A stretch of 27,556 nt of DNA from an uncultured Gammaproteobacteria bacterium (GCA_964411255.1 CAYPKD010000004.1:178147-205702); one strand, 5' to 3'. Numbered from the stretch's first letter, positions 1,020 through 20,851 are shown. The notes: generated by a model from the letters alone, not told the origin. Program-made: numbers and translations.

Positions 1020-1559
1020 TCACTTTTTCTTAATTTTTTTATAAATTAAATATCCAAGAGCAAACAATCCACCTGTTGCTAAACTGGCAAAGAAAAATGC
1101 GACTTTAAACGCTAATTCATCCATTTGCTTATCAACTTCTTGCCTTTGTTCTTTTTTCCTTAATTTATTAATGAAATAAATATTTAGAATTAATCCGTAT
1201 AATACATTTACTGATAATAAAACAATTCCAATTGCTGGCATAGCAATGAATAAAATAGCTCCGGCTATTGCCAACACGACCGTGCCAAACAAAATTAAAA
1301 AAAATGGTAAAACATATCTTTTGCCAACTTGTGCTTCATATGTAATTTTTCCAAATTCTTTTTGAGGCTCAACTATTGGAGCCTTCCCATATCTTGCCTC
1401 ATCAATACCTGAATATAAAATTATAATGCCAGTGAATAAAAAAGGACAAGCTACAGGACTAATTGCAGCTACTCCTGTAAAAATTGAAACTAAAACCACA
1501 GCTATACTAACAATTATAAATAAAATTCCTCCAATTTTCATTAAAGTTGGCCGCTTCAT
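1020..1559 (-). CDS. Small polytopic membrane protein, function unknown
   Basis: ORF of 179 aa with about four hydrophobic helices and a lysine-rich C-terminus. It lies 4 nt downstream of the preceding minus-strand gene. Confidence 0.5.
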   Translation of the reverse strand: MKRPTLMKIGGILFIIVSIAVVLVSIFTGVAAISPVACPFLFTGIIILYSGIDEARYGKAPIVEPQKEFGKITYEAQVGKRYVLPFFLILFGTVVLAIAGAILFIAMPAIGIVLLSVNVLYGLILNIYFINKLRKKEQRQEVDKQMDELAFKVAFFFASLATGGLFALGYLIYKKIKKK

Positions 1560-1563
1560 ATAT

Positions 1564-2790
1564 TTAAATGTCTCTTTTATAAATATTAAATTTTAATCCA
1601 TCTTCTGCTATAATCAAATCATAAAATTTAAATTTTAAATTTTTCAAAACCTGCATTGAAGCTTTATTTTCAACATTTCTGAGACAAACTGCACCCCATA
1701 TTTTAGTATATTTTGTATCAATTAAATCATTTATTAGCCTTTGGAAAAGAGTTTGTCCTATTCTTTGATTCTGATAATTTATATCAACTGCTATTTGCTC
1801 AGCATAAATCAAAGGCCTTTGCTGATCTAAAATATATTTAGTAATATCATCTGAAATATTTAGTTTTTCAATAAAATCATCTGTAAATGCGGATAAAAAT
1901 CCAATTACCTCACCTGCTTTTTCAGCAACATAAAAGTACGGATTATCTTTAATATATTCTTCGTATCTTCGCATTGGCGGTACTTCGAATTCAACAAATC
2001 CTTTTGCTTTTTGCGAAGAGCGTCTAATATTATAATCCATAGTCAATTGTCTAACAATTTCCGCATCTTTAATCTGTGCTTTTCTAATCAAAACATCAGG
2101 ATGGCTGTTCCATTTAAACTTATCCATTACTTTTATAACTCCATACATAAACGGTGTATCAATGGCTGCAATTATAACTTTTACCACCCATTGTCCTAAA
2201 ATCAAGGGCCAAATCGGAAAAATACCATAAAAAGCAATAACAACAAAAATTACTGAATCAAGCAACTGGCTGACAATAGTTGACGCATTATTTCTTAGCC
2301 AAAGATGTTTGCCCTTGGTTAATTTTTTCAAAAAATGAAATGCCCAGACATCATGATGCTGGCTGATTAAATAAGCTATAAATCCAGCAACTGCGATTCG
2401 AGGTGTTAAACTTAAAACTTCTTTAAATTTATCAGCCAATTCAATTGCATAAGGTGCAGGCTTCCAGTACATTGCAATATATAAGGATAAAATAAAAATT
2501 AAATTTGCATAAAATCCTGTCCAAACCGCACGCCGGGCTGCCCTTTTCCCCCATTTTTCAGATAAAATATCAGTGATTAAAAATGTCATGGAAAAGGCAA
2601 TCACGCCTGCAGGCACTGTAAATGGGCCAAAACTTACTATTTTAACGGCCAAAACATTAGCAATCACCACTAAAGCAGCCATAATAGCAATGGGATAAAA
2701 AACTCCGTATTTTTTTCCTAAAATACCTGCAAATGATGCAACCACTAAAGTTACAATAATCCAAATTAAAATCAATATTATTTCTGGCAT
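1564..2790 (-). CDS. Fusion protein: N-terminal YhhQ/DUF165 (VUT-family queuosine-precursor transporter-like) membrane domain plus C-terminal GNAT N-acetyltransferase domain
   Basis: The N-terminal 230 aa are polytopic, with the YhhQ-like signature FSMTFLITDILSEKWGK (compare the FPLTFLxTDxINE core of that family). The C-terminal 170 aa have the GNAT fold pattern (VIGFLSAFTDD...IAVDINYQNQRIGQTLFQRLI...), whose Q/RxxGxG/A acetyl-CoA motif is QRIGQTL. Confidence 0.7.
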   Translation of the reverse strand: MPEIILILIWIIVTLVVASFAGILGKKYGVFYPIAIMAALVVIANVLAVKIVSFGPFTVPAGVIAFSMTFLITDILSEKWGKRAARRAVWTGFYANLIFILSLYIAMYWKPAPYAIELADKFKEVLSLTPRIAVAGFIAYLISQHHDVWAFHFLKKLTKGKHLWLRNNASTIVSQLLDSVIFVVIAFYGIFPIWPLILGQWVVKVIIAAIDTPFMYGVIKVMDKFKWNSHPDVLIRKAQIKDAEIVRQLTMDYNIRRSSQKAKGFVEFEVPPMRRYEEYIKDNPYFYVAEKAGEVIGFLSAFTDDFIEKLNISDDITKYILDQQRPLIYAEQIAVDINYQNQRIGQTLFQRLINDLIDTKYTKIWGAVCLRNVENKASMQVLKNLKFKFYDLIIAEDGLKFNIYKRDI

Positions 2791-2993
2791 ATATTATTTA
2801 ATTTACCTTTCCAATCTTTTATATCCAATCTTTGAAAATTATCTCCATGCAATGCTTGCCCGGTTATTAATTTATAAATCAAATAAGGTGCTGCGCACTG
2901 CTCGCATTTATTATGACCGCCAAAAGAGCAATAACCCTGCTTTTCCCAAAGCGATAAACAAAATTTTAATTCATTTAATAATTTTTCCTGCAT
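2778..2993 (-). CDS. Cys-rich small protein of 71 aa, unknown function (4 Cys: Cx7CxxC plus one)
   Basis: The ORF overlaps the start of the downstream transporter gene by 13 nt, which suggests translational coupling. There is no recognisable family. It could be a spurious ORF. Confidence 0.35.
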   Translation of the reverse strand: MQEKLLNELKFCLSLWEKQGYCSFGGHNKCEQCAAPYLIYKLITGQALHGDNFQRLDIKDWKGKLNNICQK

Positions 2994-2995
2994 AT

Positions 2996-3424
2996 TTACT
3001 TTTTATTTTTTAAAATTTTAAAAGCTTTTTCAATTGCCTGAAATTCTGGCAATTTTTTATCATAATAATCAGCAAATTCATTTTTTGACAACCATTTATA
3101 CTGCTGAATTTCATCTTCTAATATTTTAATTTCCTGTTTTGGATCTTTCATCTTAGCAAAATATACTATTTCTACCCCTTCCCTTTCTTCGCTAAACATA
3201 AAAGATATAGTATAAAATGGATCTTCAACTATTATATCAATACCAAGTTCTTCCTTTACTTCTCTTTTTAATGCATCATAGCAATCTTCACCAAATTCTT
3301 TTCGGCCACCAACTAATTCCCATTTATTTGGCAGAAAATCTTTTTTATTTGATCTTTGGCAAGCTAAAAATTGATTCTTGTCATTGTAAATGAAAGCGAC
3401 TACGACTATTTCTCTTTTTTTCAT
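2996..3424 (-). CDS. NUDIX hydrolase
   Basis: The Nudix box GGRKEFGEDCYDALKREVKEELGI fits the pattern Gx5Ex7REUxEExGU. Confidence 0.8.
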   Translation of the reverse strand: MKKREIVVVAFIYNDKNQFLACQRSNKKDFLPNKWELVGGRKEFGEDCYDALKREVKEELGIDIIVEDPFYTISFMFSEEREGVEIVYFAKMKDPKQEIKILEDEIQQYKWLSKNEFADYYDKKLPEFQAIEKAFKILKNKK

Positions 3425-3843
3425 ACATTTTTTTCAATAAACGGTTTAATAATATTAATTATCTCATCAGCTCCATTACAAGGAAATGAAATTGGTTTGC
3501 CTTTTTTAAATTCTAATGTTACAAATTCAGAAGTCTGCCACATGCTCATTGGATATACTGCGCCTTTTCTTATACCTTTTAATTTTGAAATCGGAATTTT
3601 TCTAATAAAAGGGAAAAAACCAACCACTAATCTGTCTTGCCTTGAAAAATCCACCCAATATCCAAACAGCACGCCAAATAAAATCAAACCTATTGGTGCA
3701 AATATTACAATTATTATCCATTTCAATGGTCCCCAAACTAATTCTTCTGCTGGAATCCATATCCAAGTAATTATCCACCCAGTCCAAAGTAATAAATAAT
3801 AAATATAAGGTGATAGTTTTAAATTATAATGGTGTTTGAACAT
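3421..3843 (-). CDS. Membrane protein with a bacterial PH-like (bPH_2/YdbS-like) domain
   Basis: It has an N-terminal hydrophobic hairpin followed by a soluble segment of about 70 aa. The domain assignment is from memory of the YdbS-like architecture. Confidence 0.5.
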   Translation of the reverse strand: MFKHHYNLKLSPYIYYLLLWTGWIITWIWIPAEELVWGPLKWIIIVIFAPIGLILFGVLFGYWVDFSRQDRLVVGFFPFIRKIPISKLKGIRKGAVYPMSMWQTSEFVTLEFKKGKPISFPCNGADEIINIIKPFIEKNV

Positions 3844-3924: not shown

Positions 3925-4659
3925 ATGTATCGACTCATCCGCATAGCAGATAATTATGCAATGGTTATTGCTGTTACACCTGAAGACGCAAAACCAGAAG
4001 ATCAGGGTTCACGATTTTTCCTGTATAATGAATATATTGCTCAGCAAAAGAAAGTAGATCCAGATTTTGTTGAAGTAACAAAAAGTGTTGCTATACAATA
4101 CTTTGGTGGCATTGCTGATGGCCTTGGCTGGGGAAATCTACCCTCAAAAGCATTTAAAACTTTAGATGAAATTAAGGTTTGGAGACAAAAATCAGTAAAG
4201 GCTTGGACAGAAAAAAGACTAGCAGAGCAGGAAGCTCGGAAGAAAGAAAGACTAGTAGAACTGAAGGAGAAAAATGCCAGGTTTAAAATCATCCGCGTGG
4301 CAGAAGACTATTCAATGATTCTTGCAATTATACCTGAAGACGCAAAGCCAGATACTGAAGGCAGCCTTCTTTTTATGTATAATAAATGGAATGAATCGGC
4401 TGAGTCAAATGATTGCGATTTCGAAGACATAACAGAAAGTGGAGAAGGTTGGCTCCTCAGTAGATGGTTCCTTAGTAGTCATACTGATGATCTTGGCTGG
4501 GCAGATTTACCGTCTGAAACATTTGAAACTTTAAACGAGATCAAAGCTTGGAGAGAAAAAAGAATAGAAGAGGGTGAAATTAAGGATACAAAAGTTTGGC
4601 GAGACAAAGTGTTGACAGCAATGACGGATGACAAAATATTAACAACGGACGATATATAA
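3925..4659 (+). CDS. Internally duplicated protein of 244 aa (two repeats of about 121 aa), unknown function
   Basis: Repeat 1 (MYRLIRIADNYAMVIAVTPEDAKPEDQGS...LGWGNLPSKAFKTLDEIKVWRQK) and repeat 2 (RFKIIRVAEDYSMILAIIPEDAKPDTEGS...LGWADLPSETFETLNEIKAWREK) are clearly homologous. A strong SD and a consensus promoter precede it, and a terminator follows. Confidence 0.7.
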   Translation: MYRLIRIADNYAMVIAVTPEDAKPEDQGSRFFLYNEYIAQQKKVDPDFVEVTKSVAIQYFGGIADGLGWGNLPSKAFKTLDEIKVWRQKSVKAWTEKRLAEQEARKKERLVELKEKNARFKIIRVAEDYSMILAIIPEDAKPDTEGSLLFMYNKWNESAESNDCDFEDITESGEGWLLSRWFLSSHTDDLGWADLPSETFETLNEIKAWREKRIEEGEIKDTKVWRDKVLTAMTDDKILTTDDI

Positions 4660-4676
4660 TATCGTTCGTTTTTTAA
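4644..4676. terminator. Bidirectional intrinsic terminator shared by the convergent genes ending at 4659(+) and 4673(-)
   Basis: Hairpin AACGGACGATAT-ATA-ATATCGTTCGTT (12-bp stem with one G:U) followed by TTTTTT. The + gene stop codon lies in the loop. Confidence 0.6.
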
Positions 4677-4978
4677 ATTTGCCCAGTATGATTCCTATTT
4701 TTATTATTTTCAATAATTTTATTTAAAACTTCTTCACTTTCAACGCCAAACATTTCGCATAAACCCAAACAATATATTATTAAATCTCCAACTGCATCAA
4801 TCATTTCTTCTTTATTGCTAATTTCTTTTGCTATTTTTTTATCACTATTTTTAAATGCCTTTGCCAACTCGCCCAATTCTTCAGTCATTAAAATAATTTC
4901 TTTGCCAACATCAGTGATATTAAAACCTCGCTCAACTTTGTTTTGATATACTTGCTTTTGTAATTCATTTAAACTCAT
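4673..4978 (-). CDS. MazG-like all-alpha nucleoside triphosphate pyrophosphohydrolase (small, 101 aa)
   Basis: It shows the motifs TEELGELAKA and EEMIDAVGDLIIYCLGLC plus NNKNR, matching the EExGE ... D/ExxD pattern of MazG/HisE-type NTP-PPases. Confidence 0.65.
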   Translation of the reverse strand: MSLNELQKQVYQNKVERGFNITDVGKEIILMTEELGELAKAFKNSDKKIAKEISNKEEMIDAVGDLIIYCLGLCEMFGVESEEVLNKIIENNKNRNHTGQI

Positions 4979-7663: not shown

Positions 7664-8074
7664 TTATTTAATTTTTTGGATATCCCCATTTAATATTATT
7701 GGCTTTGTATGTAAAATTTCCTGGGTATAACGTAACACCTGTTTTTCAGGTGGTGTATAAAGCAAAAATGTTTTTTTCTTCAAATAATATGCTAATCCAA
7801 TCTCAATTAAAGTTGCTCCACCAATATACCCTTTCATTCCATTCTTTGGATGATTCAATACTAAAAAAATATCGCTATCTTCCAGCTTCATCATTGAATC
7901 ACGCATAATATCCATAGATTCTGTATGATCAGGATCCATATTTAATTCTGGATTTTCCACGCATTGTTCTGTATCAGCAGGAACCAATACCTCAAATCCC
8001 ATTTCCTCTAATTTTTTCTGAGTCTCAAGCATCTCTTTTGCAAAATGCATTGAACCGCCAATATAAATTTTCAT
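7664..8074 (-). CDS. Protein of the nucleoside 2-deoxyribosyltransferase / DNPH1(Rcl)-like family (dNMP N-glycosidase-like)
   Basis: An N-terminal MKIYIGGSM resembles YxxGxxR/M. The core SDIFLVLNHPKNGMKGYIGGATLIEIGLAYYLKKKTFLL fits the (A/S)DxxVAxL...S.GTxxExGxA...GKPV pattern of that superfamily. Confidence 0.6.
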   Translation of the reverse strand: MKIYIGGSMHFAKEMLETQKKLEEMGFEVLVPADTEQCVENPELNMDPDHTESMDIMRDSMMKLEDSDIFLVLNHPKNGMKGYIGGATLIEIGLAYYLKKKTFLLYTPPEKQVLRYTQEILHTKPIILNGDIQKIK

Positions 8075-8075
8075 A

Positions 8076-8393
8076 TTAGTTTGTTTTATCTATCTTCGCT
8101 TCCAAATCATCCATCACTTGCCAAAATTTATTTTCCAAATCAACATCAGTTTTATTGGCTAAAACCATAACGCTCCACAATACATCAACCAATTCATGTT
8201 CCAGTGCCTCTTTCACGTCTTTATCAAGATTTCGATAATTACCACGGGCCATTAATATCTTTGATAAATCTCCCACATCTTTTACCATACCCATAAAAAC
8301 CTGGTCAGTTCCCCACTTTGTGGGTTCAATTTTTTCATATTTTGCTTTAATTTCAACAGCTCGTTCAGTCATTTTGTTAAAATCATTTTTCAA
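8076..8393 (-). CDS. MazG-like NTP pyrophosphohydrolase (105 aa), third paralog
   Basis: It has VKDVGDLSKILMA and EALEHELVDVLWSVMVLA, the two-helix MazG-like signature. Confidence 0.6.
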   Translation of the reverse strand: MKNDFNKMTERAVEIKAKYEKIEPTKWGTDQVFMGMVKDVGDLSKILMARGNYRNLDKDVKEALEHELVDVLWSVMVLANKTDVDLENKFWQVMDDLEAKIDKTN

Positions 8394-10134: not shown

Positions 10135-10245
10135 TAAACGGTATCGGCATTATGATGACTTTTCCTCAGGAATGACGAAAACCGTATCGGCATTATGATG
10201 ACTTTTTCTCGGGGATGACAAAAACAGAGTCGGCATTATAATTTA
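10088..10245. repeat. Repeat cluster downstream of the GIY-YIG gene: an inverted copy of the hairpin repeat (B1, 10109-10134) plus a 42-nt tandem direct repeat x2.6 (10136-10177, 10178-10219, partial 10220-10245)
   Basis: AAACGGTATCGGCATTATGATGACTTTTCCTCAGGAATGACG and AAAACCGTATCGGCATTATGATGACTTTTTCTCGGGGATGAC are followed by AAAAACAGAGTCGGCATTATAATTT. An inverted copy, CATGCCGATA, of the repeat core GTATCGGCATT lies at 10089-10098. Confidence 0.7.
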
Positions 10246-10667
10246 TCTCTAATTAATTCAGCCACTTCATGCAATTCCTTTTCAGGTGAAATTTCTCTTG
10301 ATCCTGGTCGATATAAAAATTTTCTTGGATCATATTGATGAATTCCCGTATCTTTTGGCTTTCTGGGAATTAAATGTAAATGAAAATGAGGAATAGACTG
10401 CCCAGCATCTTTGCCCTCATTCCAGGCGTGATTAAATCCAGTGACGCCAAACAATTCCATAAGCGCTGGTTTTAGTTCCTCAGCCAAATCCAGCACAGCC
10501 ATTATTTCATCTTCTGTCATCTTTTCAATTGCTTCTACCTGTCTTTTTGGCACAATTAAAATATGACCAGGCACAATCGGCATATTTGTCGGAAAAGCAT
10601 AAGCCAAATCATTTTCAATAATGATTCTGTTTTTTATATCTTCTAAGTCATTAAATGAAATTGGCAT
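10236..10667 (-). CDS. HIT-family (histidine triad) nucleotide hydrolase/transferase
   Basis: The histidine triad is HFHLHLIP (HxHxHxx), and the N-terminal core is GHILIVPKR. Confidence 0.8.
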   Translation of the reverse strand: MPISFNDLEDIKNRIIIENDLAYAFPTNMPIVPGHILIVPKRQVEAIEKMTEDEIMAVLDLAEELKPALMELFGVTGFNHAWNEGKDAGQSIPHFHLHLIPRKPKDTGIHQYDPRKFLYRPGSREISPEKELHEVAELIRDKL

Positions 10668-11061: not shown

Positions 11062-11268
11062 TTATACCTTTTGTTTTGGCACTATAAAAATCAAATATAA
11101 ACTAACTACCCAAAGACCAAGGCTTATATAAAGCACAAAATTTGGCATTACATACCAATTTGAAAAATACGCAATTACTTTTGCTGCAATGCCCAGCAAT
11201 GATATAATTAATAAAATTTTTCCAGCTAAGTTGAAATTTACAGGCACTAAACCTGGAGGATATTTCAT
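11062..11268 (-). CDS. Possible small membrane protein (68 aa) starting at the internal Met of the track ORF 11062-11436
   Basis: The track ORF runs through the tRNA gene and so cannot be real upstream of about 11330. The C-terminal 68 codons (MKYPPGLVPVNF...) are hydrophobic and may be real. Confidence 0.3.
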   Translation of the reverse strand: MKYPPGLVPVNFNLAGKILLIISLLGIAAKVIAYFSNWYVMPNFVLYISLGLWVVSLYLIFIVPKQKV

Positions 11269-11331
11269 ACGATTTAATGGTTCAATCTTCGCAAAACCTT
11301 CTGGCCTGCCAGCCGAAGCTTCAGCGAAGGC

Positions 11332-11418
11332 TGGCGGAGAGGACAGGATTTGAACCTGCAAGTCCACAAGGGACGCACGCTTTCCAAGCGTGTGCCTTAC
11401 CATTCGGCGCACCTCTCC
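11332..11418 (-). tRNA. tRNA-Ser (anticodon GGA), class II with a long variable arm and an encoded 3' CCA
   Basis: The reverse complement reads GGAGAGG-TG-CGCC-GAATGGTAA-GGC-A-CACGC-TTGGAAA-GCGTG-CGTCCCTTGTGGACTTG-CAGGTTCAAATCCTG-TCCTCTCC-G-CCA. The anticodon loop is U33-GGA-A37, the D-stem is 3 bp and the variable arm is long (GTCC-CTTGT-GGAC), both typical of tRNA-Ser. Confidence 0.9.
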
Positions 11419-11510
11419 TCTTTCTCCTTCAACCACTCGCCTGCTCTGTACCGAACGCTAGTTCTGGTGCGGGGGCCATCTCTCCCTTAACGAACGAGTT
11501 TAATGAAAAT

Positions 11511-11675: not shown

Positions 11676-12548
11676 ATGGCTCAAGTTGATATGCACATAC
11701 ATTCGCATTTTTCAGATGGATCAGATTCTCCTACTCAAATCGTTCAAAAAGCAAAATCACTTGGATTAAAAGCAATTTGTCTGACTGACCATGACAATTA
11801 TGAAGGCTTGCCAGAATTCGTTCAGGCTTGCAGGGAACATAATATGAATTTTCTTTGCGGTATTGAAATAATGACATTTTTTCAGGGAATAAAGATTGAA
11901 ATACTGGCTTATGGCATTGATTTGCCCAGAGATGAAAAGTTAAAAGACATACTTTCTAAAAATTGGAAAGCTCATAATTTAAAAGTTCAAAAAATGCTTA
12001 ATGGATATTCTGAACATGGAATTTTTACTGCCACAGTAAACGATATTAAAAGAGCAATGGATTATAAAGGACCGTTTGCCACCAAGGCTTGGCTACGGGA
12101 ATTTAGAGTTCAGGAATTTGATGTTGAGAAAAAGCAAGCCAAACAAGAAACTGCCAAAAATGGTGTGGCTTATGCGCCATACGATCAAGATAAATTCATT
12201 ACTCCAGAAGAAGTGTTTGATTTTGTTCATGCGCTCGGCTGGAGAGCAGTTTTAGCTCATGGCGGAGTTATCAGCAAAGAAATACCTGAGTTTCAAAAGT
12301 GGACAGATTTTATTAAACTTCTTGTTTTGCAATTAAAACCGCTTGGTTTATTCGGAGTTGAAGCATATCACTACCGAAATGAAAAACAATATACTGAATT
12401 TCTTGTTCAAATGGCCCGAGAGCATGGCTTGGCAATAACTGGCGGATCTGATTATCATGGCAGATTTCAATCAAGGCAAATCGGGCAATTTGCAATCAGT
12501 TATGAAAATTTTTTGCAATTTAAAGAGCTAATAAACATAACCGCGTAA
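11676..12548 (+). CDS. PHP-domain phosphoesterase (TrpH/YciV-like; 3',5'-nucleoside bisphosphate phosphatase / RNase AM family), paralog 1
   Basis: The N-terminus MHIHSHFSDGSDSPTQIVQKAKSLGLKAICLTDHDN carries the PHP motif I HxH and motif II DHD. Later metal-ligand histidines are LAHGG and GGSDYHG. Confidence 0.8.
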   Translation: MAQVDMHIHSHFSDGSDSPTQIVQKAKSLGLKAICLTDHDNYEGLPEFVQACREHNMNFLCGIEIMTFFQGIKIEILAYGIDLPRDEKLKDILSKNWKAHNLKVQKMLNGYSEHGIFTATVNDIKRAMDYKGPFATKAWLREFRVQEFDVEKKQAKQETAKNGVAYAPYDQDKFITPEEVFDFVHALGWRAVLAHGGVISKEIPEFQKWTDFIKLLVLQLKPLGLFGVEAYHYRNEKQYTEFLVQMAREHGLAITGGSDYHGRFQSRQIGQFAISYENFLQFKELINITA

Positions 12549-12636: not shown

Positions 12637-13530
12637 ATGCCTTTTGAAGCTGATATGCATAGCCATTCATACTATTCTGATGGTTATAATTCTCCAGCTG
12701 AATTAGTCAAAACAGCAAAATCCCAAGGGTTAAAGGCAATTTGTCTGACAGATCATGATAATTTTAACGGCATACATGAATTTATCAGAGCCTGCAAATT
12801 AGCACGACTTGATTTCATCCATGCAATTGAGCTGACAACTACCTATAAAGGTGTAATCGTTCATATATTAGGCTATGGATTAGATCTGAATAATCACACT
12901 CTTAATAAAGTGGTCTTTTCTCAATGGTATGTTCATAACCTCAGAATGACTCAAATATTGAGAAAATATAGAAAAAAAAAGGTTATGGATGTTTCATTGG
13001 ATAATTTAAAAAGGTCAGTCCAATGCAAAGGCCCTTGTATGTTTGACACTTGGCTAATAGATTTTCGCATGAGAATGGCTGAAATTTCTTTTGAACAAGC
13101 AAAAAATGAAATTAGCGGTAATGGATTTGTTAATACTGAATATGATAGTGAATTATTACTCACTGCCCCTCAGGCAGTAGATCTAATTGATAATGCTGGA
13201 GGATTAGCAGTGATTGCTCATCCTGGTGAAATAAGAAGAAGGCTTGAAAACAGAGGGATTCACGTAAATTGGAATAATTTCATTCAATTATGTATTTCCA
13301 TTCTTGAAAACCAGGGTTTAGCTGGAATAGAAGTGTCTCATCCCAGAAATGATGATGAACAAACTGAATTTTTAACCCATCTGGCAGATCAACGAGGATT
13401 AATAAAATTTGGCGGGTCTGATTATCATGGAAAATTTAAATCATATCTTCCTGGTCAATGCGGCATTAGTTATAAAGCTTTTCAGCAGATTAAAGCCAAA
13501 ATTATTAAAAAAAGACCGCGAAAATCGTGA
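12637..13530 (+). CDS. PHP-domain phosphoesterase (TrpH/YciV-like), paralog 2
   Basis: MHSHSYYSDGYNSPAELVKTAKSQGLKAICLTDHDN is collinear with paralog 1, as are IAHPGE and GGSDYHG. Paralog 2 has a basic C-terminal tail, KKRPRKS. Confidence 0.8.
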   Translation: MPFEADMHSHSYYSDGYNSPAELVKTAKSQGLKAICLTDHDNFNGIHEFIRACKLARLDFIHAIELTTTYKGVIVHILGYGLDLNNHTLNKVVFSQWYVHNLRMTQILRKYRKKKVMDVSLDNLKRSVQCKGPCMFDTWLIDFRMRMAEISFEQAKNEISGNGFVNTEYDSELLLTAPQAVDLIDNAGGLAVIAHPGEIRRRLENRGIHVNWNNFIQLCISILENQGLAGIEVSHPRNDDEQTEFLTHLADQRGLIKFGGSDYHGKFKSYLPGQCGISYKAFQQIKAKIIKKRPRKS

Positions 13531-16628: not shown

Positions 16629-18128
16629 CTAATGACCAATTTTAAATATCTCAACTTTATTTGTTGCCATTACACCAAGCTTTATCCGATCATCAGATGA
16701 AGCATAAAGAGTAAATAATTTCTCACCTTTCTTTATCCTTTGACCAAAAAACGCATGCAAATGAACTCCCGCAAGCTTATCGCTTGGCGCACCAAGGTTC
16801 ATGCAAATTTCTTTAATTGCCTTGTTGTCAACAAAATTAATTTTACCCGTTTTTTTAGCATGAATTTCATATCTTTTAGCGCCAGAAGTGAAATCTTCTG
16901 AATGCTGGTCAGCTTTTCCGCCTTGCGCGATTACAATTTCATTCATTTTATCCCAGGCAGCGCCTGAAGTTAATTGCCGCATGGCAATTTTTCTGCCCTG
17001 ACCTTTTTTTGCAAACCCTTTTAATTCTAATAATTCACCTGCTAGTTTTACTGATTTTCTTTCTAAATCAAGCGGACGAAGCTCATGCCTTTGCAAAACT
17101 CTGAATACATCCCGAGCTTCCAGCGCTGGGCCAATTCCTCTGCCCAGCGGCTCTACGGCCTTTGTTTTCACTGCTTTTACCTTCATACCAAACCTTTTTC
17201 CCAAAGCAATGAATTTCTTCTCGATCATATTTGCTTTTGCCATATCAGGCACTTTGGTTGTCGGTCCGACCGGAATGTCAATAATTAAATAATCAACACC
17301 GGTCGCCACTTTTTTAGCTAAAATACTAACAATCATTTTATCATACGGCTCAAGAGCCAATGGTTTTGAAACTTTTATAATCTTATCATCAGCTGGAGCA
17401 AGGCTTAGTCCCCCGCCCCAAACCAGACAGCCATGTGTCTTTTTTACAATTTTTTTAATCTCATCCATTGAAAATGATACTGGGCAAATTACTTCCATTG
17501 TGTCTGCTGTACCTGCCGGAGATGTAATTGCTCTGGATGAAGTCTTTGGGATATATAGCCCGAGCGAAGCGATAATTGGAATAATTAACGGCGTAATTCT
17601 ATTACCTGACAGGCCGCCGACTGAATGCTTATCTACAGCTTTAACATTCAGGTTCATTTTCTCACCAGTTTCAGCCATTGCTTTTGCCACGTAATAGAGC
17701 TCGTCAAGCGAATAATCTTTTACAAAACTGGAGGCAGCATAATAAGTGGTTTCAACCGAACCTAGCACTCCGTCAACAATATCTTTAATAACCGCATAAA
17801 TTTCTTTGTATGTTACTGGTTTTCCCATTAACTTTTTATTTATTGTCTGAATAGAAAGTGGCCGGCTCATAATGCTGGCTTCAACAATATCGCCTGATTC
17901 TACTTGCACTTTTTTCCATACTTCCTTGAACAAGCCTAATTCTCCAGGTCGAACCTTTGTATTTGTCGTATCAGCGGTAACGATCGCTTTTTTATTTTTA
18001 CTCCAAATCAAATTCAACCTGTCTCCAGGATAAATTCCATAGCTTTCCGCTTCATCTTCATTTAAAACAGCGATCATTTTATCGCCTGTTGAAAAATCCA
18101 ATTTTTTGCATTTTAAATAAAACGCCAT
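16629..18128 (-). CDS. AMP phosphorylase (thymidine-phosphorylase family II enzyme with an N-terminal extension)
   Basis: At 499 aa it is longer than a classical TP. It has glycosyltransferase-family-3 core motifs (SVGGLSGNRITP, TSSRAITSPAGTADT) and a C-terminal alpha/beta domain, and it sits next to RuBisCO and the R15P isomerase. Confidence 0.8.
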   Translation of the reverse strand: MAFYLKCKKLDFSTGDKMIAVLNEDEAESYGIYPGDRLNLIWSKNKKAIVTADTTNTKVRPGELGLFKEVWKKVQVESGDIVEASIMSRPLSIQTINKKLMGKPVTYKEIYAVIKDIVDGVLGSVETTYYAASSFVKDYSLDELYYVAKAMAETGEKMNLNVKAVDKHSVGGLSGNRITPLIIPIIASLGLYIPKTSSRAITSPAGTADTMEVICPVSFSMDEIKKIVKKTHGCLVWGGGLSLAPADDKIIKVSKPLALEPYDKMIVSILAKKVATGVDYLIIDIPVGPTTKVPDMAKANMIEKKFIALGKRFGMKVKAVKTKAVEPLGRGIGPALEARDVFRVLQRHELRPLDLERKSVKLAGELLELKGFAKKGQGRKIAMRQLTSGAAWDKMNEIVIAQGGKADQHSEDFTSGAKRYEIHAKKTGKINFVDNKAIKEICMNLGAPSDKLAGVHLHAFFGQRIKKGEKLFTLYASSDDRIKLGVMATNKVEIFKIGH

Positions 18129-18140
18129 ATAGTATTTATA

Positions 18141-19406
18141 TTATTTTTTCCAAAACTGTAAAGCCCTTGCCAATTCTTCATGATCTTCTGAATATTCTTT
18201 TAATTTTACTCCACGCTCAATGGCTTGCACTGCCTGGCGGCAAGCCCTGGCGCCGGCAACTGAACCGTCTGGATGGCCGTGAATACCAGCGCCAAAATTG
18301 GCGATTAGATTTATTCCGAGTATTTCAACCAATTTAGGCAAAAGCCCTGGATGCAAACCACCAGAAGCAATTGGCAAAACCGGTTTAATTTTACTCCAAT
18401 CCTCTTTGACAATATTGTGGCTTTTCCAGTCTTCCTTCATCAATTGATTTACTGTTAAAACATCTTCCCGATCGCCCTCCATTTTACCAACTACTGTTCC
18501 AGTATGCAATTGGTCAACTCCGGCCAGTCTGGCTAATTTTGCAATAACCAGCATACTCATCCCATGTTTTTTATTTCTGGTAAATAATGCGTGTCCTGCC
18601 CGGTGGCCATGAATTATTAATCCTAAATTTTTCTTTCGTAAATATTGTACATTATCTAAACCAGTTGAAACGATATCAACCATCACGCATTTTCCACCCA
18701 ATTTTTTCACTAATTTTGCCCGTTCAAGCATTTGTTCAGGCGGTGCAGTAATATTACAGGCATATACTTTTTTCTGTTTTGTTTCTTTTTCAACTTTTTT
18801 CTTCCAATACAAAACCTTTTTCACTCTGTCTGCAAAACGGTTAAAGCTCATGTTAGTTAAATTCTCATCGTCTTTAACCAAATCAATGCCATTCAGCCAT
18901 ACAGCAGCTGACAATTTTGCCTGCTGGGCCGCAGTTAAACCTACTTTTGGTTTTATAATACTTCCTAAAATCACTCTGCCTTTTATTTTTAAAATCTTTC
19001 GGATGCCGTCAATGCCAAATGCCGGCCCCTTAAAACTGGCGCTGTATTTCACTGGAAATTCAATATCTTCCCATCTTAAATTTTTTATTAACTTCATACC
19101 GTAAATATTGCCTCCAATGCTTGATAAAAGTTGAGGAATACTGCCCCTTTCAAATAAATCTAAAGGATAAGCAACTTTTATTATCTTTTTCTTTTCATTT
19201 GCAAAAAAGACTCTGGCCTTTAATTTTTCTGCTAATTTGGGGTTCAGTGTCTGTAATTCTGTCCATGATCCAATAGAACTCTCCCCAGCAACTGCATCAG
19301 CTGCTTCCTGAAAGCTGACTCCTCTTGGCTCAACATAAAAAGTAGCGATAATTTCCTTATCCTTTTTTGGCTTGTATCCAATTTCAACAAATTTTACTAC
19401 TGACAT
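18141..19406 (-). CDS. rbcL: RuBisCO large subunit, short form II/III-like (421 aa)
   Basis: The motifs GIDLVKDDENL (GxDFxKDDE), IIKPKVGL (KPKLGL), IHGHRAGHA (HxHRAxH) and ASGGLHPG are present. No small subunit is present. Confidence 0.85.
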   Translation of the reverse strand: MSVVKFVEIGYKPKKDKEIIATFYVEPRGVSFQEAADAVAGESSIGSWTELQTLNPKLAEKLKARVFFANEKKKIIKVAYPLDLFERGSIPQLLSSIGGNIYGMKLIKNLRWEDIEFPVKYSASFKGPAFGIDGIRKILKIKGRVILGSIIKPKVGLTAAQQAKLSAAVWLNGIDLVKDDENLTNMSFNRFADRVKKVLYWKKKVEKETKQKKVYACNITAPPEQMLERAKLVKKLGGKCVMVDIVSTGLDNVQYLRKKNLGLIIHGHRAGHALFTRNKKHGMSMLVIAKLARLAGVDQLHTGTVVGKMEGDREDVLTVNQLMKEDWKSHNIVKEDWSKIKPVLPIASGGLHPGLLPKLVEILGINLIANFGAGIHGHPDGSVAGARACRQAVQAIERGVKLKEYSEDHEELARALQFWKK

Positions 19407-19410
19407 AACA

Positions 19411-19502
19411 TTGATAGTTACGAAGTTATGATGTTATGAAGTTACGTTGTTATTTAAAATATATATAACGTCGTAACTTAGTAACCTCGTAACATCATAA
19501 CG
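19411..19502. repeat. Imperfect palindrome of about 90 bp built from heptamer units (AGTTAYG on the left, CGTAACT-type on the right) around an AT-rich centre, lying between the HAD-like gene stop and the RuBisCO start
   Basis: The sequence is TTGATAGTTACGAAGTTATGATGTTATGAAGTTACGTTGTTAT-TTAAAATATATAT-AACGTCGTAACTTAGTAACCTCGTAACATCATAACG. Confidence 0.6.
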
Positions 19503-19914
19503 ATTTTATTAGTTTTACAATTTTTTCAATATCATCTAAGGCGAAGTCAACTTCATCTGTTTCATTATTTTTACTAAACAAAACTGTTTTAATTCCTACT
19601 TGTTTTGCTGGAAGCAAATTGCTAATAAGATCATCAATCATTAAACATTCTTCTGGTTTTATATTCAAATCATTTATAAATTTTTGATATGTATTTGCAT
19701 CTGTTTTACTTTGGCCTGATTCAGCGCAGGCAATGATAGGATCAAGCCCTAACTGATTTCCAATCTCTTTCACTGTGTTTGGAGATAAATTACTAATGGT
19801 TGCATTAATAATCCCTTTTGCTTTTAACTGTTCAACAATATCCTTGGCTTTAGGGTCAATCTGGCCATTTTTATAAACCACGCCATATAAATCCCAAATA
19901 ATTGCTTTAATCAT
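19495..19914 (-). CDS. Small HAD-like hydrolase domain protein (139 aa; a possible phosphatase)
   Basis: IIWDLYGVV sits at the motif-I position (DxDGx-like, with the second Asp replaced), and MIDDLISNL sits at the motif-IV position. It is short for a HAD enzyme, so the assignment is tentative. Confidence 0.45.
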   Translation of the reverse strand: MIKAIIWDLYGVVYKNGQIDPKAKDIVEQLKAKGIINATISNLSPNTVKEIGNQLGLDPIIACAESGQSKTDANTYQKFINDLNIKPEECLMIDDLISNLLPAKQVGIKTVLFSKNNETDEVDFALDDIEKIVKLIKSL

Positions 19915-20851
19915 ATTTTTTTTTCAAAAACTTATACTTCTTTGTCGTTTTCTTTGAAATATATTTTGGTTTTAATATTCCCAATTCTGTAATAAAACCT
20001 GTGATAAACCTGGCAGGAATAATATCAAATGCATAATTTATAATTTCCAATCCCTTTGGCGCTCTGGACCAAATTTCATTTGCTTTTCTTTGTTCAATTT
20101 CTAAATTTTTCAAATGTTTAGTTTCAATATCAAGCTTTAATGCCTGAGTTGCTATATATACTGGAATTTTTGCTTCACGCGCTGCTAAGGCCAGGCCTAA
20201 AGATCCTATCTTATTAACTGCATCACCGTCCAAAGTAATTGCATCACAGCCTAAAATTAATAAATCCATATCATATCCTTTGCTATACTGGCTGACAAAA
20301 AACGGACCTGCGCTGTCAACCACTTGGGTATTTTTAATATTCATTTTTAATAATTCTTTTGAAGTCGTTCTGCCCTGAAATAATGGCCTGGTTTCATTAT
20401 TAAAAACATGGATTTTTTTTCTTTTCTTTTTGGCCGCTTCTAATATACTTATTGCGGTAGAGGAATGACAATGAGTAAAGATATTATCATTATTACTAAT
20501 CAATTTCTCACCATAATCTTTAATAATTCTTTTATTTGTCATTATTTCAAATAAAAAACTGTCAATTCCTCTTTTTATTAAAACTCTTAACTTTTTTATA
20601 TCTAAATCCTGATTTTTATCTAAATGATATGAAACAAATCGTACAGCATTTTCTGCCATTGGCTCTGTTTCTCTGGCCCTGCTCAAGTAATATCCAATTT
20701 TTTTCACTCTGCTGATTAATTGACGGGGAGTTTTCAGCCTTTTCTCCTGAGAAACTTTTTTTAAGGTATTTAAAACAGCTTCAGCTATATTGGTTGCCCC
20801 CTGAATTTCAATGTTAACGATTTTTTTATAAATTTGGTCGATGTAATTCAT
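19907..20851 (-). CDS. Ribose-1,5-bisphosphate isomerase (eIF-2B alpha/beta/delta-like e2b2 family)
   Basis: An e2b2/MtnA-fold signature (GATNIAEAVL ... ILGCDAITLDGDAVNKIGS) is present. Its stop overlaps the HAD-like start by 8 nt. Confidence 0.75.
   Translation of the reverse strand: MNYIDQIYKKIVNIEIQGATNIAEAVLNTLKKVSQEKRLKTPRQLISRVKKIGYYLSRARETEPMAENAVRFVSYHLDKNQDLDIKKLRVLIKRGIDSFLFEIMTNKRIIKDYGEKLISNNDNIFTHCHSSTAISILEAAKKKRKKIHVFNNETRPLFQGRTTSKELLKMNIKNTQVVDSAGPFFVSQYSKGYDMDLLILGCDAITLDGDAVNKIGSLGLALAAREAKIPVYIATQALKLDIETKHLKNLEIEQRKANEIWSRAPKGLEIINYAFDIIPARFITGFITELGILKPKYISKKTTKKYKFLKKKYD

Follow-up and report, generated by a model that had tools for sequence, protein, structure and literature searches.

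The stretch of DNA examined here, 27,556 nt from an assembly deposited as an uncultured Gammaproteobacteria bacterium (GCA_964411255.1, CAYPKD010000004.1:178147-205702; the window hereafter), carries a gene for a 408-amino-acid (aa) protein in which a YhhQ-type queuosine precursor transporter is continued, in the same reading frame, by a GNAT acetyltransferase. This is a new domain architecture made of known families, for which a literature search gave no earlier report. We propose that the protein is an importer which also anchors an acetyltransferase at the cytoplasmic face of the membrane, with the two activities co-localised and not chemically coupled, and we give this reading a probability of about 45%. 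The open reading frame (ORF) and its parts are the following.

1564..2790, minus strand: the whole fusion ORF, 408 aa plus stop (TAA at 1564-1566), from the ORF list.
2113..2790, minus strand: transporter half, aa 1-226, a YhhQ/QPTR (Vut_1, COG1738) membrane domain, recognised by PF02592 and TIGR00697.
2092..2112, minus strand: junction or linker, aa 227-233 (WNSHPDV), about 7 residues running directly into GNAT strand beta1.
1567..2091, minus strand: GNAT acetyltransferase half, aa 234-408, recognised by PF00583, AlphaFold and Foldseek.
1756..1773, minus strand: putative acetyl-CoA pyrophosphate-binding loop, aa 340-345, Q-N-Q-R-I-G, non-canonical at position 4.
1675..1683, minus strand: L370-R371-N372 at the end of strand beta5, in place of the H-x-P motif of the relatives.

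The ORF starts with an ATG and runs in a single uninterrupted frame on the minus strand. The first-pass annotation of this DNA, which left the strand unstated, had described one 408-aa ORF joining a YhhQ-type and a GNAT domain, and had quoted two motifs; the ORF is present as described, and both motifs were found in it (FSMTFLITDILSE at aa 66-78 and QRIGQTL at aa 342-348). The family given there to the N-terminal domain is corroborated by the profiles, which align over their full length and above their cutoffs: Vut_1 (PF02592) covers aa 60-217 with an E-value of 2.8e-56 and 190.5 bits (cutoff 27.2; profile positions 1-151 of 152), and the NCBIfam model for a 'queuosine precursor transporter' (TIGR00697), aligned over positions 10-200 of its 201, gives 182.3 bits against a cutoff of 50.95. 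The second half is matched by Acetyltransf_1 (PF00583) at aa 266-370 (E-value 5.9e-10, 39.9 bits, cutoff 20.7).

The reality of the fusion is substantiated by its independent copies. The exact 408-aa protein is a public record (P0001) present on 11 contigs, and the ORF shows 0 nucleotide differences across contigs of different samples and pipelines (JGI 3300029258, a 364-kb contig; JGI 3300018080; ENA ERZ27256796). A second allele (P0278), separated by 140 nucleotide differences and 92% identical at the aa level, is likewise an unbroken 408-aa ORF in three further assemblies, and no stop codon was found at the junction in any of the seven contigs compared. It had been claimed that neither a stop nor a frameshift lies near position 2100, and this holds for the junction as now located (2092-2112), where the frame is continuous in the identical copies and in the diverged allele. 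An assembly or sequencing artefact joining two separate genes is therefore excluded for practical purposes and effectively refuted. Nothing was found in favour of such an artefact, the only indels being in a single contig (L006) and lying inside the GNAT, not at the junction.

This 1.7-kb contig (L006:100-1323) aligns to all 408 residues in one frame, with 73% identity and a shared junction, and together with the 92% allele it allows the selection acting on the fused protein to be evaluated. By the Nei-Gojobori method, the ratio of nonsynonymous to synonymous substitution rates (dN/dS) in the transporter and GNAT halves is 0.062 and 0.108, respectively, between the window and the 92% allele (L008), and 0.084 and 0.106 between the window and L006. 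Strong purifying selection has therefore acted on each of the two halves during the fused state, and a 1227-nt ORF in DNA of 30% GC with both halves at a dN/dS of about 0.1 is far beyond chance. These values bear on the possibility that the fusion is transient and meaningless, a GNAT gene having landed downstream, its start and the transporter stop having been lost, with nothing conferred by the fused state, which would be heading for loss. Such a course would be consistent with the very narrow distribution, with the disappearance of conserved family motifs, with the promiscuity of GNAT as a domain, and with the state of L006, in which two deletions in the N-terminal part of the GNAT, of 2 nt and 1 nt and separated by 50 nt, produce an in-frame TGA at codon 251. 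However, once the frame is corrected, the shifted stretch of L006 still encodes the conserved peptide (13/16 residues), so the lesion either reflects a pseudogenisation of the GNAT half that is very recent or is a contig error. The GNAT-half dN/dS of 0.11, measured over dS of 0.44 and about 1.9, indicates long-term constraint while fused, and the junction is intact in three lineages, at identities down to 73%. We consider a meaningless fusion very unlikely. Recoding of the stop codon in L006 was also envisaged and rejected, as the TGA falls within the segment shifted by the deletions.

The anatomy of the junction indicates how the two genes were joined. An exhaustive HMMER search with the GNAT half against 1.84 billion representatives clustered at 50% identity gave 193 relatives, nearly all of them stand-alone proteins of 170-190 aa; the clustering hid the query's own cluster, and there was no self-match. 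The best relatives reach E-values of 2.6e-32 with 30-41% identity (query 10-184 against relative residues 2-177). A word-indexed search with the GNAT half alone returned no match, the query itself included, and one with the GNAT family profile returned 29. Because residue 2-3 of the relatives aligns to residue 234 of the fusion, and their last residues to its C-terminus, a whole GNAT gene is joined, right from its beginning, by way of about 7 linker residues. The linker stands where stand-alone transporters have a lysine/arginine (K/R)-rich tail; the shortest of these transporters stop at about residue 225-226, past an MDK-x-K motif, and the others add the short K/R-rich tail. The possibility that the GNAT is translated on its own, beginning at an internal start, was considered and rejected, the sole candidate being codon 234, which is TTG in the window and in L008 and TTA in L006. 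As no internal start is conserved, the GNAT can, to judge from this comparison, be produced only within the fusion.

The distribution of the architecture is narrow. Among the best 120 matches, which constitute the transporter homolog set, P0001 alone has both domains together. The closest other transporters are 79-85% identical, syntenic and stand-alone, with lengths of 228-250 aa. The gene order in one syntenic relative (L004/L005) is NUDIX, small ORFs, 228-aa transporter, 181-aa protein and SNase, with no GNAT, and in L007 a 236-aa transporter is directly followed by the ortholog of the 179-aa gene that lies downstream of the fusion in the window. Since the syntenic relatives pass directly from the transporter to this ortholog, the fusion is best regarded as recently formed and restricted to one narrow lineage. 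A scan of species representatives (one genome per species, the window's own organism not being among them) gave related transporters at 80 loci, with identities of up to 68%, under the labels Woesearchaeota, Nanoarchaeota or candidate phyla radiation bacteria; none of the 80 matched past about residue 290, and a GNAT of the window's subfamily was found within 4 kb of the transporter in 0/80. A metagenome DNA scan with the GNAT half recovered only the L008 contig again. The combination, with which the first-pass annotation professed no acquaintance, is indeed very rare. A full-text search of the literature found no report of PF02592 with an acetyltransferase, and a GNAT fusion goes unmentioned in two papers on the transporter family (PMC5372724, PMC11130926).

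The transporter half looks like an ordinary YhhQ/QPTR importer of 7-deazaguanines, and it appears unchanged when compared with its stand-alone orthologs. In an alignment of 67 sequences (the window protein and 66 homologs), 32 columns are invariant, all of them kept in the fusion, and 46 are near-invariant. The N-terminal 226 aa thus constitute a full-length member of the family (COG1738, PF02592, TIGR00697; VUT in TCDB) with the invariant positions kept, whereas known members are stand-alone proteins of ~220-240 aa and the window protein adds a C-terminal enzyme domain. The score against the E. coli-type equivalog NF008406 is 52 bits (cutoff 252). AlphaFold models this half with a predicted local distance difference test (pLDDT) value of ~95, and 6-7 membrane helices are predicted both by hydropathy and in the model, against six in E. 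coli YhhQ. No relative of the transporter half was found in the PDB; the model has a weak fold likeness to the S-components of energy-coupling factor (ECF) transporters, which fits the VUT classification in TCDB (PMC5372724). YhhQ-type transporters carry preQ0 and preQ1, and archaeal homologs have been proposed to salvage preQ0 for archaeosine (PMC5372724). The archaeal cargo would presumably be preQ0 for archaeosine salvage; nothing was found in the literature linking DPANN, archaeosine and preQ0. With regard to topology, K/R-rich loops occur at aa 23-33, 77-88 and 144-169. The GNAT half should be cytoplasmic, where acetyl-CoA is available, because the C-terminus of E. coli YhhQ has been located experimentally in the cytoplasm (PMC5372724), the stand-alone tails are K/R-rich and the loops follow a positive-inside pattern; the placement of the GNAT at the cytoplasmic face, proposed at first pass, is therefore the expected one.

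The GNAT half is predicted with confidence as a complete fold of its class. An AlphaFold model from a 68-sequence alignment has a pLDDT of 94.9 and a predicted template modelling score (pTM) of 0.90, and its elements follow the canonical order beta1-alpha1-alpha2-beta2-beta4-alpha3-beta5-alpha4-beta6-beta7. Foldseek gives a probability of 1.0 to many GNAT structures, including those of ArsN/phosphinothricin acetyltransferase (PAT) and Ard1/Naa60 types. The nearest solved structures are acetyltransferases of amino-acid analogues (ArsN/phosphinothricin type), archaeal Ard1 and human Naa60 and Naa10/50, with TM-scores of 0.66-0.69 and identities of 14-18%. The NCBIfam models for RimI, ArsN1 and PaiA are all far below their cutoffs: the RimI/Ard1-type profiles TIGR01575 and NF007025 score 20.3 bits (cutoff 86.4) and 19.8 bits (cutoff 173), and the ArsN/PAT profile NF040504 scores 18.9 bits (cutoff 210). 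ArsN/PAT (YncA-type) enzymes are the top structural and profile matches, with the N-x-x-S-I-x-L...GF motif in common; relative to them, the H-x-P region of the window's GNAT family is a 3-residue insertion. The relatives of the GNAT half are unnamed or generically named, and the few organism names include an unclassified 'archaeon' metagenome-assembled genome (MAG) and a Pacearchaeota MAG.

Compared with its stand-alone relatives of ~177 aa (such as P0121-P0127), to which it is 30-41% identical over the full length, the fused copy has in common with them R, D, GF, Y, N and a terminal Y, the family-conserved positions kept being R236, D242, G264, G297, F298, Y329, N375 and Y404. It differs from them by the absence of H-x-P, of several conserved glycines and of its own start codon. 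At the end of beta5, the relatives have H in 53/65 and P in 64/65 sequences, where the window has L370 and N372 and L006 has I and D; the conserved glycines G119, G162 and G178 (GNAT-half numbering) are R343, K386 and N402 in the window. The canonical acetyl-CoA loop is Q/R-x-x-G-x-G/A, placed after strand beta4. Position 4 is G in 49/67 relatives and R343 in the window, whose positions 1 and 6 match the canonical pattern, and the loop of L006 is canonical (Q-N-R-G-I-G). The designation of QRIGQTL as the acetyl-CoA motif was thus right as to place, but the loop itself, Q-N-Q-R-I-G, departs from the canonical form. By these comparisons, the fused GNAT is classified as a divergent offshoot of an uncharacterised GNAT subfamily, partly of DPANN, that has lost one defining motif, H-x-P.

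These substitutions raise the question of a regulatory domain, in which the GNAT would sense acetyl-CoA or acetylate lysines of the transporter loops, thereby tying uptake to metabolism, and in which catalysis may be lost. The loss of the near-invariant H-x-P and the G-to-R change in the CoA loop could be read in this way, as could the K/R-rich cytoplasmic loops at aa 77-88 and 144-169 and the tight tethering. It is countered by the retention of most family-conserved residues (Y329, N375 and Y404 among them), which points to a working enzyme, by the canonical CoA loop of L006, and by a transporter half that has undergone no lineage-specific change; in addition, we know of no precedent for a regulatory domain in the YhhQ/QPTR family. 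A regulatory role therefore seems hardly probable.

The gene neighbourhoods of the GNAT relatives are mutually unrelated and contain no transporter. In other members of the subfamily, a different membrane module is attached: a Lit-like domain (PF07314) at the N-terminus of P0241, and an 8xMP domain (PF24838) at the C-terminus of P0269, P0270 and P0292. These fusions suggest that the GNAT subfamily acts at the membrane. The pairing of GNAT with Lit (lipoprotein intramolecular transacylase) in P0241 might relate to lipoprotein N-terminal modification.

The preference for an anchored acetyltransferase without chemical coupling is founded on several observations. It is favoured because the subfamily has repeatedly been fused to unrelated membrane partners, because the transporter and the GNAT are not associated elsewhere (0/80 genomes, and none in the neighbourhoods of the GNAT relatives), because the transporter half is unchanged, because the precursor in archaea, preQ0, lacks an aliphatic amine that could be acetylated, and because the GNAT is apparently dispensable in L006, where it is interrupted and the transporter is intact. 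With the exception of the unchanged transporter half, the same observations speak against import-coupled acetylation, in which the GNAT would acetylate the imported molecule and thereby trap it, or would detoxify an amine-bearing analogue (the aminomethyl group of preQ1, or a deazapurine antimetabolite). The confinement of the fusion to a single narrow lineage is a further argument against it, and we know of no acetylated 7-deazaguanine. The first-pass suggestion of an acetylation of the imported substrate, or of the transporter itself, consequently finds no comparative support in the 80 loci, in the unrelated neighbourhoods and membrane partners, or in the broken GNAT of L006.

There are also points that weigh against our proposal, and several of them would suit import-coupled acetylation. 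A linker of about 7 residues sets the GNAT at the cytoplasmic mouth of the transporter, a position that is also suited to coupling with the cargo. The acceptor-side residues have been remodelled under continuing purifying selection, and the changes from H to L370, P to N372, G to R343 and G to N402 could mean either a new acceptor linked to transport or lost catalysis. The closest solved GNATs include the small-molecule detoxifiers ArsN and PAT. A QPTR transporter fused to an enzyme that consumes the cargo, tRNA-guanine transglycosylase (TGT), is a known precedent (PMC11130926), and the YhhQ-type cargoes include preQ1 as well as preQ0 (PMC5372724). Moreover, none of the specific family models assigns an acceptor, and the full-length AlphaFold model, of low confidence in the GNAT half, gives no information on domain packing. 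Finally, clustering at 50% identity hid even the query, and further fusions may hide beneath transporter-only representatives. On balance, we hold import-coupled acetylation to be unlikely, albeit worth keeping in view. Its vectorial form, in which the cargo would be acetylated on leaving the transporter (preQ1 to N-acetyl-preQ1, or a toxic amine analogue), strikes us as distinctly improbable. If it were true, the protein would be a metabolic trap or a detoxifying gate, and DPANN archaea would contain an acetylated deazapurine metabolite, or a precursor of a tRNA/DNA base, not known to date.

Under the reading that we favour, that of co-localised activities, the following course of events can be hypothesised. 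The GNAT would have been recruited from a small uncharacterised family of stand-alone proteins, some of whose members are DPANN, and inserted behind the transporter gene and ahead of the 179-aa gene, the read-through then being fixed in one narrow lineage. The short cytoplasmic tail of the transporter would thereby have been replaced by the linker of about 7 residues and the whole GNAT of ~175 aa, which would lie at the cytoplasmic face, packed closely against the final transmembrane helix. The transporter would keep importing its precursor while doubling as a membrane anchor, and the tethered GNAT would transfer the acetyl group of acetyl-CoA to the nitrogen of an amine at the inner surface of the membrane. 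Candidates for this amine are a protein N-terminus, a lysine or a small amine, and probably not preQ0. The loss of H-x-P suggests that the acceptor site was remodelled after the fusion.

Some known systems offer parallels to this arrangement. Naa60 is a membrane-anchored GNAT at the cytosolic face and in this respect resembles the proposed tethering, although its anchor consists of amphipathic helices and not of a transporter. Naa60/NatF and archaeal Ard1 are among the closest solved structures (TM-score 0.66-0.69), but their identity to the window GNAT is only 14-18% and the RimI/NAT profiles reach 20 bits against a cutoff of 86. In MprF, a flippase with a GNAT-fold lysyl-phosphatidylglycerol synthase, and in HGSNAT, a permease-like module is combined with an acyl-transfer module at the membrane face. 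The likeness is one of general logic only, since neither has a sequence relationship to the window protein, and nothing found here points to the transported molecule as the one that is acetylated. A closer case is that of the bacterial QPTR-TGT fusions, in which the transporter family is joined to tRNA-guanine transglycosylase (Epigenomes 2024, PMC11130926). Like the window protein, they unite a YhhQ/QPTR-family transporter with a cytoplasmic enzyme; they differ in that TGT consumes the imported base, whereas the GNAT has no known role in deazaguanine metabolism.

Gene fusions are among the main tools for assigning function in queuosine and archaeosine salvage, and the QPTR-TGT fusions helped to find the transporters. 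Were the transporter and the GNAT coupled, the fusion would point to an unknown acetylation step for imported deazapurines or, alternatively, to a new mechanism by which host-dependent DPANN archaea gate or trap the substrates they salvage. It is a clean Rosetta-stone case, but its narrow distribution and the absence of comparative support limit what can be deduced from it. Caution is warranted with a lineage-restricted fusion of this kind, and neither partner should be annotated from it uncritically. The repeated tethering of the GNAT subfamily to membrane proteins is a better-supported lead on its site of action.

The surroundings of the fusion in the window comprise the following features.

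1020..1559, minus strand: multi-pass membrane protein of 179 aa, matching no Pfam family, 4 nt downstream of the fusion.
2778..2993, minus strand: 71-aa Cys-containing ORF, upstream of the fusion and overlapping its start by 13 nt.
2996..3424, minus strand: NUDIX hydrolase (PF00293, E-value 3e-19), an upstream neighbour in the same gene string.
3421..3843, minus strand: 140-aa hydrophobic protein of no family, first of the string, with a 4-nt overlap with the NUDIX gene.
3925..4659, plus strand: 244-aa ORF with two internal repeats, near the fusion on the opposite strand.
2996-3424, 4673-4978, 7664-8074, 8076-8393 and 10236-10667: nucleotide house-cleaning or salvage genes.
11332-11418, minus strand: tRNA-Ser(GGA).
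11676-12548 and 12637-13530, plus strand: tandem pair of paralogous PHP-domain proteins, 290 and 297 aa long.

In a compact gene string ordered as 140-aa protein, NUDIX, 71-aa ORF, fusion and 179-aa protein, the fusion comes fourth, and overlaps or gaps do not exceed 13 nt. Orthologs of the 179-aa protein (47-66% identity) directly follow the transporter in L004-L007, and this protein may be a functional partner of the transporter. NUDIX is also upstream of the stand-alone transporter in L004/L005. The 71-aa and 244-aa ORFs are present in the window's lineage (L001, L002) and missing from the contigs of the 92% allele (L008-L010), and they appear as strain-level gene insertions or deletions adjoining the fusion. 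No tgt, arcS or que gene was found among the ORFs of the 27-kb window, and an Rfam scan of it detected no riboswitch, the preQ1 type included. Genes for nucleotide house-cleaning and salvage are unusually dense near the transporter (NUDIX, two MazG-like proteins, a nucleoside 2-deoxyribosyltransferase and HIT). A mechanical ORF at 11062-11436 encloses the tRNA-Ser(GGA) gene and is almost certainly spurious.

The window has a GC content of 28-40%, and from its gene content and the names of related proteins it looks like part of a DPANN-type archaeal chromosome, similar to those of Woesearchaeota or Nanoarchaeota. A beta-CASP nuclease is also encoded in it. Genes for AMP phosphorylase (Glycos_transf_3 + PYNP_C), form III RuBisCO and ribose-1,5-bisphosphate isomerase (IF-2B family) adjoin one another at 16629-20851 on the minus strand, and this trio constitutes the archaeal AMP/nucleotide salvage pathway that is typical of DPANN and other archaea.

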